Origin: Escherichia coli
GTDB taxonomy: Bacteria > Pseudomonadota > Gammaproteobacteria > Enterobacterales > Enterobacteriaceae
NCBI RefSeq assembly: GCF_016026235.1
Contig: NZ_CP065613.1
DNA length: 64,000 nucleotides
Strand: one strand, 5' to 3'
Part shown: positions 19,658 to 20,784 of the stretch, in pieces
Position numbering within the stretch: position 1 is the first letter of the stretch
Layout of the letters: every line of letters starts with the position of its first letter
Notes under the pieces: model-generated
The model's database searches: none
Told to the model about the DNA's origin: nothing
The model's input: only the letters and a program-made list of their open reading frames with translations
Position numbers and translations under genes: made by a program

Positions 19658-19995
19658 TGCAGGAAAGCAGGCTGGAGTTACCCAGCCTGCAGTGAAATTA
19701 AACTGTCGTCGCTTTCACTATTTCTTTGTAGATGATTTTTTTGATGCCGTTGTTCTACGTGAGAGATAATAAAACGTTGTCAGTTCTTTTATTGTTAAGT
19801 TTATCCCAATTATCTGGAATTCCTTTCCCTATTTTTTCGTGTGGAGTAATAATTTCTGCACATCTAACCATTATTAAATTTAATAATAAGTATCGGGTTT
19901 GTTACGATAGAATATTTCTATATCCTCAAGAATATGCTTTGCCTTATTACCTGTGACTTTCTGAGATTCAATTATAGTATCGTTAAATTCTAATG

Positions 19996-20421
19996 TTAAA
20001 GAGAGCTCTTTTTTCCGCTTTGTGTAAGTTTAACCTTATATTGATTACCAATATCAAATAAAAAGGTCCTGTAATGAGAATAATCACCTTTAACCTCCTC
20101 GGCAAAACAGCAAAGCGTGCAAATATACATAAAGTCTTTCTTACCCCTGATTTTGTTAACTAAATCAATAAATGCGTGAAAAACTTTACTTGCAATAGAA
20201 CTTGATACTTCTTCTCCAGGTCTACAAAAATCTTTTGCAATTTTTAACTGTGTTTCTATGTATAAAAAGAAATCTTTGGCATAAGAGAAATCTTTGGCAT
20301 AAGAGATATCTTTATTATTTAGTGCATCTAGCTCAACAGGTAAAGATGTCGTTTTGTTGCTATTCACATATGATATATTCATATCATCATCTCCATCGCG
20401 AGTAATAAAATTAATCACCAT
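19996..20421 (-). CDS. Uncharacterised AT-rich ORF at the yjbS position (141 aa)
   Basis: ORF in an AT-rich islet between tyrB and aphA; contains an 18-bp tandem duplication (encodes ...SYAKDFSYAKDF...); no functional motif recognised. Confidence 0.45.
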   Translation of the reverse strand: MVINFITRDGDDDMNISYVNSNKTTSLPVELDALNNKDISYAKDFSYAKDFFLYIETQLKIAKDFCRPGEEVSSSIASKVFHAFIDLVNKIRGKKDFMYICTLCCFAEEVKGDYSHYRTFLFDIGNQYKVKLTQSGKKSSL

Positions 20422-20784
20422 TGTAGGGTAGGGGGGCTGGTCAATCAGAAATCATCTTTATAAACTTCGATTGTTTTTGTAATGCTGTATCATTAAGTTC
20501 ATTAAATCGTACAGCAGATAAATGTTCTATCAAATTTCGCTCATTTGCAGAGGATTCATCATAATAAACGTAAAATTAATGTATCCTTACATCGAGTAAT
20601 AAACATTTTTTATACAAAAAAAGACAGGAACGTATTTACTGGGTTAAACATAATCATCCTGCTTTTCATCACAAAAACCGCAGATAATCCTTCCTTTCCC
20701 CGGCAGCTGGCGTTATGGTCAGATGGTTTTTGCAACAAATCTCACAATAAAAAGTTTCAACATACTGACTATTTAGGGAAAAAT

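Follow-up and report, generated by a model that had tools for sequence, protein, structure and literature searches.

The window analysed here, a stretch of 64,000 nucleotides of Escherichia coli DNA (contig NZ_CP065613.1), carries a short AT-rich islet between tyrB and aphA, with alr and tyrB upstream and aphA, yjbQ, yjbR and uvrA downstream (gene order taken from the annotation of FDAARGOS_943, whose locus is 100% identical). The GC content is 0.285-0.355 across 19700-20799 as compared to approximately 0.5-0.57 in tyrB and aphA, in agreement with the AT-rich setting described in an earlier note on this DNA. Using composition and homology borders with genomes that carry the KguS/KguR island at this site (called kgu-type genomes for simplicity), the islet was delimited as a cassette of about 995 bp and about 31% GC at 19658-20652. 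Islet-type and kgu-type genomes are homologous up to the tyrB stop codon and again from window position 20653 onwards; the 132 bp ahead of aphA (20653-20784, plus strand; aphA start at 20785) are common to both types and lie outside the cassette. A GC-rich hairpin, GCAGGCTGG-AGTTAC-CCAGCCTGC, is seen by sequence reading just after the tyrB stop (19667-19690), where the terminator scan made no call; it is specific to the islet, kgu-type genomes having a different hairpin in the same position. The sole gene of the roughly 1-kb islet, yjbS, lies on the strand opposite to the flanking tyrB and aphA.

The minus-strand open reading frame at 19996-20421 (141 aa if read from the ATG at 20421) occupies the same place and strand and has the same start as K-12 yjbS (b4621; 'protein YjbS', 67 aa, uncharacterised), to which its DNA is 96.7% identical, and is therefore the yjbS locus, as the earlier note had suspected. 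Translation probably starts at the ATG at 20382 and not at 20421, judging from a Shine-Dalgarno-like GGAG at 20391-20394 (minus strand), 8 nt upstream of the former, and from the lack of any such motif ahead of the latter (both by sequence reading). PGAP annotates the same 387-nt CDS with the start at 20382 at the identical FDAARGOS_943 locus. Read from this position, the window carries a truncated yjbS allele of 128 aa (19996-20382, minus strand), beginning MNISYVN... and ending ...SGKKSSL*. Just upstream of the open reading frame, a C-run at 20425-20434 (G-run on the plus strand) counts 3, 5 or 6 C among strains according to a pattern count.

Within this frame, gaaatctttggcataaga occurs twice head to tail as exact 18-bp copies at 20269-20286 and 20287-20304, followed by a degenerate partial third unit (gatatcttt...). 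TRF reports the array at 20268-20313 with period 18, 2.6 copies and 96% matches, and a separate repeat search of the window returned the same 18-bp pair. The tandem duplication reported earlier is thus real, seen by direct reading, TRF and repeat search and again in the strain comparison below; the span then given, about 20268-20303, was correct within one base, the exact copies beginning at 20269 and ending at 20304. Read on the minus strand, the repeat encodes SYAKDF-SYAKDF and gives ...DISYAKDFSYAKDFFLY... in the protein, the context in the 141-aa frame reading ...NNKDISYAKDFSYAKDFFLYIE... An exact 18+18 tandem is expected by chance about 1e-5 times in 64 kb according to our own estimate (per-base match probability of about 0.29 at the local composition, raised to the power of 18 and multiplied by 64,000 positions). 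Only five tandem arrays score at least 50 across the whole 64-kb window. Two others among the arrays of the window are a 30-bp unit in 2.3 copies at 11722-11790, in a second AT-rich stretch, and a 113-bp unit in 4.3 copies with 95% matches at 47202-47688, REP/BIME-like in appearance.

Downstream of the repeat, the window allele departs from intact alleles at a homopolymer. The coding strand carries a run of six A (T6 on the plus strand) at 20009-20014 where intact alleles have A7, and this -1 frameshift ends the frame 39 codons early, so that it reads ...SGKKSSL* where intact alleles read ...SGKKELSLTLEF... The last 42 codons remain readable out of frame as ELSLTLEFNDTIIESQKVTGNKAKHILEDIEIFYRNKPDTYY* (19880-20008, minus strand), a remnant of the ancestral C-terminus that matches the C-termini of intact alleles and has acquired no added lesions. 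A second homopolymer, T5 on the coding strand at 20226-20230, is intact in the window; K-12 is one base shorter here, which results in its 67-aa YjbS.

To place this allele among others, the islet was compared by megablast with 5426 complete E. coli genomes, of which 4378 gave matches; ten loci were aligned and the open reading frame was re-called in 21 loci. Thirteen of the 21 alleles are intact: the frame from MNIS(Y/N)VN runs for 161, 167 or 173 codons, corresponding to one, two or three hexapeptide units, and ends ...KAKHILEDIE(K/I)FYRNKPDTYY. The ancestral product of 161-173 aa is thus longer than both the K-12 and the window form. K-12 has one unit and two frameshifts (T5 to T4, which yields the 67-aa product, and A7 to A6), whereas the window has two units, one frameshift and 128 aa; residues 1-46 of K-12 YjbS equal the window protein except for the extra SYAKDF unit of the latter. 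Read against these alleles, K-12 yjbS is a pseudogene-like, doubly frameshifted fragment of a 161-173-codon gene and a poor reference for it. Further lesions comprise a 9-bp deletion at the A-run plus an 18-bp deletion in O157, an additional 1-bp deletion in SE11 and a +1 insertion within the repeat in strain H2.

The state of the A-run was counted in 4342 islet-bearing records by exact matches to four allele-specific queries of 60/61 nt. A7 was found with GAGCTC in 1230 records and with GAGTTC in 811, A6 with GAGTTC (K-12 type) in 1523 and with GAGCTC (window type) in 37, while 741 records showed another state. In total, 2041 are A7 and 1560 are A6, i.e. about 47% of islet-bearing genomes are in frame at this position, and the window allele is rare (approximately 37 of the 5426 genomes). 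When the census is scaled by the share of A7 alleles that are intact (13/15), the gene is estimated to be intact in 40-47% of islet-bearing genomes. Since more than half of these genomes carry disrupted alleles, any selection on yjbS would be at best conditional, and the allele survey indicates that the gene is plainly dispensable. The earlier note had considered that absence or disruption in most strains, without conservation of the frame, would speak against the open reading frame; it is indeed absent or disrupted in most strains, but its frame is conserved where it is intact. The window allele itself is most likely a young pseudogene, to judge by a single, apparently recent frameshift that removes its last 39 residues.

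The comparison of repeat copy number with the K-12 yjbS locus and with other strains, which the earlier note had proposed, gave one unit in K-12, two in the window and one to three elsewhere. In aligned loci, shifts in copy number recur on different haplotypes: one copy is found in K-12, SE11, s190 and E110019, two in 042, RM13322, EC6868 and O121, and three in AST240, Ch1 and PEC395, while O157 is one unit shorter through an 18-bp deletion with a different register. Both the 042-type background (s190, E110019) and the K-12-type background include one-copy alleles, and three-copy alleles are spread over three backgrounds (Ch1, AST240, PEC395). Judged by match length, 48 islet-bearing genomes sampled at even spacing comprised about 22 alleles of two copies, 20 of one copy, 2 of three copies and 4 others; for the retrieved loci, alignment confirmed that length reflects copy number. 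As claimed earlier, the duplication keeps the frame, all changes among the strains compared being whole 18-bp units.

The age of the duplication differs from what was proposed for it. The two-copy state is present in roughly half of the islet-bearing genomes, including the most divergent haplotypes. The usual two-copy allele reads GAT-ATC-TCTTATGCC-AAAGAT-TTT-TCTTATGC(C/T)-AAAGAT-TTC on the coding strand, and the units within divergent two-copy alleles differ from each other (TTT/TTC, GCC/TCC, GCC/GCT) in a haplotype-specific manner (TCC/GCC in the EC6868 group, GCC/GCT in the 042 group). The duplication is therefore old, predating the divergence of the islet haplotypes. In the window both units are identical, as are all three in PEC395, and on the K-12/RM13322-like background perfect TTC-type units are found singly in K-12 and SE11, as a pair in the window and as a triplet in PEC395. 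The identical units of the window plausibly reflect recent re-expansion or conversion; a single T to C change from an RM13322-type allele might also have produced them. Of the 'recent slippage event' that the earlier note saw here, slippage thus stands as the mechanism, with copy numbers of 1-3 recurring on several haplotypes; recency is plausible for the window allele alone, the two-copy state being old and common.

The islet is absent from about 1080 of the 5426 genomes; in approximately 20% of E. coli genomes its place is taken by the 13.7-kb KguS/KguR island, as inspected in one example of an islet-less site, Ecol_276. Its tyrB-aphA interval of 13.7 kb contains a sucA-like gene, odhB, lpdA, sucC, sucD, a DASS transporter, an Ldh-family oxidoreductase and a sigma-54 regulator with sensor kinase. 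The KguS/KguR alpha-ketoglutarate island of UPEC (c5032-c5041) is reported to be an insertion between tyrB and aphA (Cai et al., 2013; PMC3694859), which is exactly the site of the yjbS islet. That island differs in having 13.7 kb, normal GC content and ten characterised genes; the two are mutually exclusive and have no sequence in common. By this comparison, the tyrB-aphA interval is a two-state locus, with the yjbS islet and the KguS/KguR island as alternative occupants. Ecol_276 additionally has pnuC and an AAA ATPase gene between alr and tyrB, neither of which is present in the window. A seeming kguR-yjbS join in a long-read metagenome contig (ENA ERZ27273331, contig_1024_polypolish, 3800-7600) was set aside, as kgu-island and yjbS-islet pieces are interleaved there with many broken genes, two E. 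coli strains having most likely been merged into a chimeric consensus.

Insertion sequences are present in the tyrB-aphA interval in five of 48 sampled genomes (IS1 in four, IS3 in one), and in one additional genome an IS1-linked deletion has taken out the islet together with the 5' end of aphA. In a macrophage-adaptation experiment, IS1 insertion into yjbS arose twice (PMC4999529). The interval thus emerges as a recurrent IS1 target. The neighbouring aphA is itself disrupted in 07D18CPO002 (IS150) and in strain H2 (frameshift).

A search for flanking repeats of the islet revealed no direct or inverted pair suggesting a mobile element, only weak pairs at chance level, and an Rfam scan of 19500-21000 returned nothing. 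Promoter and terminator scans gave sites no more numerous than in shuffled sequences, and the count of H-NS motifs in the islet was not enriched. The part of the islet at about 19841-20158, i.e. the 3' half of the full-length CDS, is what we take to be a 'promoter island' of K-12 (by an approximate conversion from U00096.2 coordinates of tyrB and yjbS). The K-12 tyrB/yjbS region is among 78 such islands, is H-NS-bound in the data of Kahramanoglou and of Oshima, and counts as foreign according to both GIST and Price et al. (Panyukov and Ozoline, 2013; PMC3661553). The islet resembles H-NS-bound islets and promoter islands in its GC content (about 31% versus about 51% in the flanks), its single orphan gene and its restricted distribution. 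We infer from composition and distribution that the islet was horizontally acquired; no donor was found. The published K-12 data (PMC3661553) further suggest that the islet would be silenced by H-NS. In another study, yjbS is listed among the genes scored 'essential' solely by TraDIS, H-NS not being discussed there (PMC5821084).

At the protein level, scans of both the truncated and the full-length product against Pfam, NCBIfam, PHROGs and PADLOC yielded nothing above noise. A search of 5.8 billion proteins returned 128 matches, all from Escherichia/Shigella or unnamed fragments, and a profile run against 1.84 billion cluster representatives retrieved fragments of yjbS alone, besides one 2001-aa low-complexity protein (E = 3.5e-4) that was judged compositional. 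No match was obtained in a sequence search of the PDB or by tblastn against phages, and a CdiI-like immunity protein was considered and dropped, there being no significant fold or sequence similarity to solved CdiI. Peptide patterns scanned against the GTDB species, each represented by a single genome, matched nothing but an E. coli contaminant in a Flavobacterium assembly; the E. coli entry of that collection gave no match, the representative presumably being a B2 strain that lacks the islet. The contaminant is a 9.4-kb contig (NZ_JAUFQN010000013.1, 'Flavobacterium paronense CECT 8460') with an error-rich copy of a K-12-type uvrA-yjbR-yjbQ-aphA-yjbS-tyrB segment. Matches to 'plasmids' in PLSDB, namely E. 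coli replicons of 0.37-4.9 Mb and a 17-kb 'Klebsiella oxytoca plasmid' (NZ_CP069917.1) with a K-12-type yjbS allele, were discarded as probably mislabelled chromosomes, fragments or contamination. Within the reach of these searches, yjbS is an orphan gene restricted to E. coli and Shigella.

AlphaFold2 with a shallow alignment produced a weak model (pLDDT 59.7, pTM 0.60) in which the N-terminal residues 1-36 are disordered and the remainder comprises three helices, a sheet of five strands and a helix at the C-terminus; the prediction is best at residues 110-150. The repeat encodes residues 27-38, tentatively placed at the junction between the predicted disorder and helix 1, a position that would explain the tolerance of unit gain and loss. 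The final two strands and the helix at the C-terminus, which are modelled with the most confidence, are lost through the frameshift of the window allele, and the truncated product would for this reason be non-functional.

Our preferred interpretation, to which we assign a probability of roughly 0.8, is that the window contains an 18-bp coding minisatellite changing by slippage in a horizontally acquired, dispensable orphan gene under purifying selection, of which the window carries a rare frameshifted allele. Copy number would shift by slipped-strand mispairing between the 18-bp direct repeats, and unit changes would be tolerated owing to the preserved frame and to the location at the predicted junction of disordered N-terminus and first helix. 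Independent inactivation of yjbS in several lineages would have occurred by homopolymer slippage (T5 to T4 in K-12, A7 to A6 in the window), by small deletions (O157, SE11), by the +1 insertion in the repeat (H2) and by IS insertions. Both types of slippage would be expected in poorly expressed AT-rich DNA, and the orphan gene would be kept under purifying selection in some lineages while decaying in others, including that of the window.

The open reading frame could instead be a chance frame in a non-coding AT-rich spacer, with a neutral repeat, the islet serving at most as an H-NS or promoter-island platform near aphA. Such a spacer would fit with the lack of a family, a fold or a cross-genus homologue, with the transcriptionally silent 'promoter island' described here in K-12 studies (PMC3661553) and with the disrupted alleles of many strains. 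We nevertheless regard it as unlikely. An open frame of 167 codons at 31% GC has a chance of about 1e-6 (own estimate from base composition), and yet the frame has stayed open in 13 of the 21 alleles, which show differences of up to about 6%. For the 13 intact alleles, the Nei-Gojobori pN/pS ratio is 0.27 in the yjbS frame as compared to 0.47-1.45 in the other five frames. The 44 segregating sites comprise 18 synonymous and 26 non-synonymous changes against a synonymous expectation of 19.5% (binomial p = 0.0009) and are distributed over codon positions 1, 2 and 3 as 10, 13 and 21, in a test that leaves recombination among alleles out of the model. Length changes of the repeat are always multiples of 18, a GGAG precedes the ATG by 8 nt, and the aphA upstream region is common to islet-less genomes, indicating that aphA does not need the islet. 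Based on the open frame that exceeds chance, the frame-specific pN/pS and the whole-unit length changes, the allele comparison indicates that full-length yjbS is a real protein-coding gene under purifying selection, yet a dispensable one.

The slippage-prone tracts of yjbS might also serve as switches. According to this explanation, yjbS is a phase-variable contingency locus in which the A-run and the repeat toggle the protein or vary it in an adaptive manner, and the window allele may yield full-length protein by -1 slippage. A6 and A7 are both common and occur on two flanking backgrounds, the downstream frame of the window is free of secondary lesions, and a dnaX-type slippery heptamer (X_XXY_YYZ) is present in the zero frame: the window reads GGA AAA AAG at 20016-20008, i.e. 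an in-frame A_AAA_AAG, and a -1 shift there restores exactly ...SGKKELSLT... The heptamer A_AAA_AAG is the slippery sequence of dnaX. However, an A tract of six to seven is on the short side for a truly phase-variable locus, gain or loss of an 18-bp unit leaves the frame as it is, the protein sequence shows neither a signal peptide nor surface features, and the second lesion in the K-12 lineage looks like decay and not like switching. Elements that stimulate frameshifting are likewise missing: the 68 nt downstream of the A-run form no hairpin (MFE -2.5 kcal/mol, z = +1.83), all 200 shuffled sequences folding at least equally well, and no Shine-Dalgarno-like element was seen upstream of the run by sequence reading. 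Basal -1 slippage alone is conceivable at the window A-run, but as a whole we consider a contingency locus improbable. A related proposal receives an equally small share of our confidence: full-length YjbS (161-173 aa) would be a functional, maintained orphan found only in E. coli and the K-12 form a pseudogene, with a fraction of ribosomes slipping by -1 on A6 to the full-length protein and on A7 to a short form, so that the two alleles would differ in isoform ratio. Finally, tandem repeats can in principle be miscalled, but an assembly or sequencing artefact of this genome is hardly credible, as no specific support for it was found, the identical allele is present in the independent complete genome FDAARGOS_943, the local haplotype is common to 37 records and thousands of genomes have two-copy alleles.

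The yjbS repeat resembles known coding VNTRs in its head-to-tail units of a multiple of three nucleotides, its copy variation among strains and its recurrent gain and loss; it differs from them in spanning only 1-3 copies, which makes its discriminatory power low. CVN002 and CVN007, two published generic MLVA loci of E. coli that likewise have 18-bp units, were examined as candidates and rejected, their forward primers being absent from the window at up to three mismatches.

An uncharacterised yjbS locus, a low-range coding VNTR and an AT-rich, H-NS-associated orphan islet are all of kinds already known. To judge from the literature that could be searched, two points are new: K-12 YjbS represents just a portion of a 161-173-aa gene with a signal of selection, and RefSeq annotation based on K-12 mislabels or splits intact alleles. 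In RefSeq/PGAP, intact yjbS alleles of 161-173 aa are labelled 'frameshifted' or are split into a pseudogene and an 83-aa hypothetical protein (WP_000275035.1), apparently owing to the use of the 67-aa K-12 YjbS, itself a frameshift product, as the naming reference. The biological stakes are modest, the repeat being an ordinary low-range VNTR and not a novel type of element. For work at yjbS on orphan genes, on presence and absence in the pan-genome and on H-NS islets, the full-length allele is the advisable reference.
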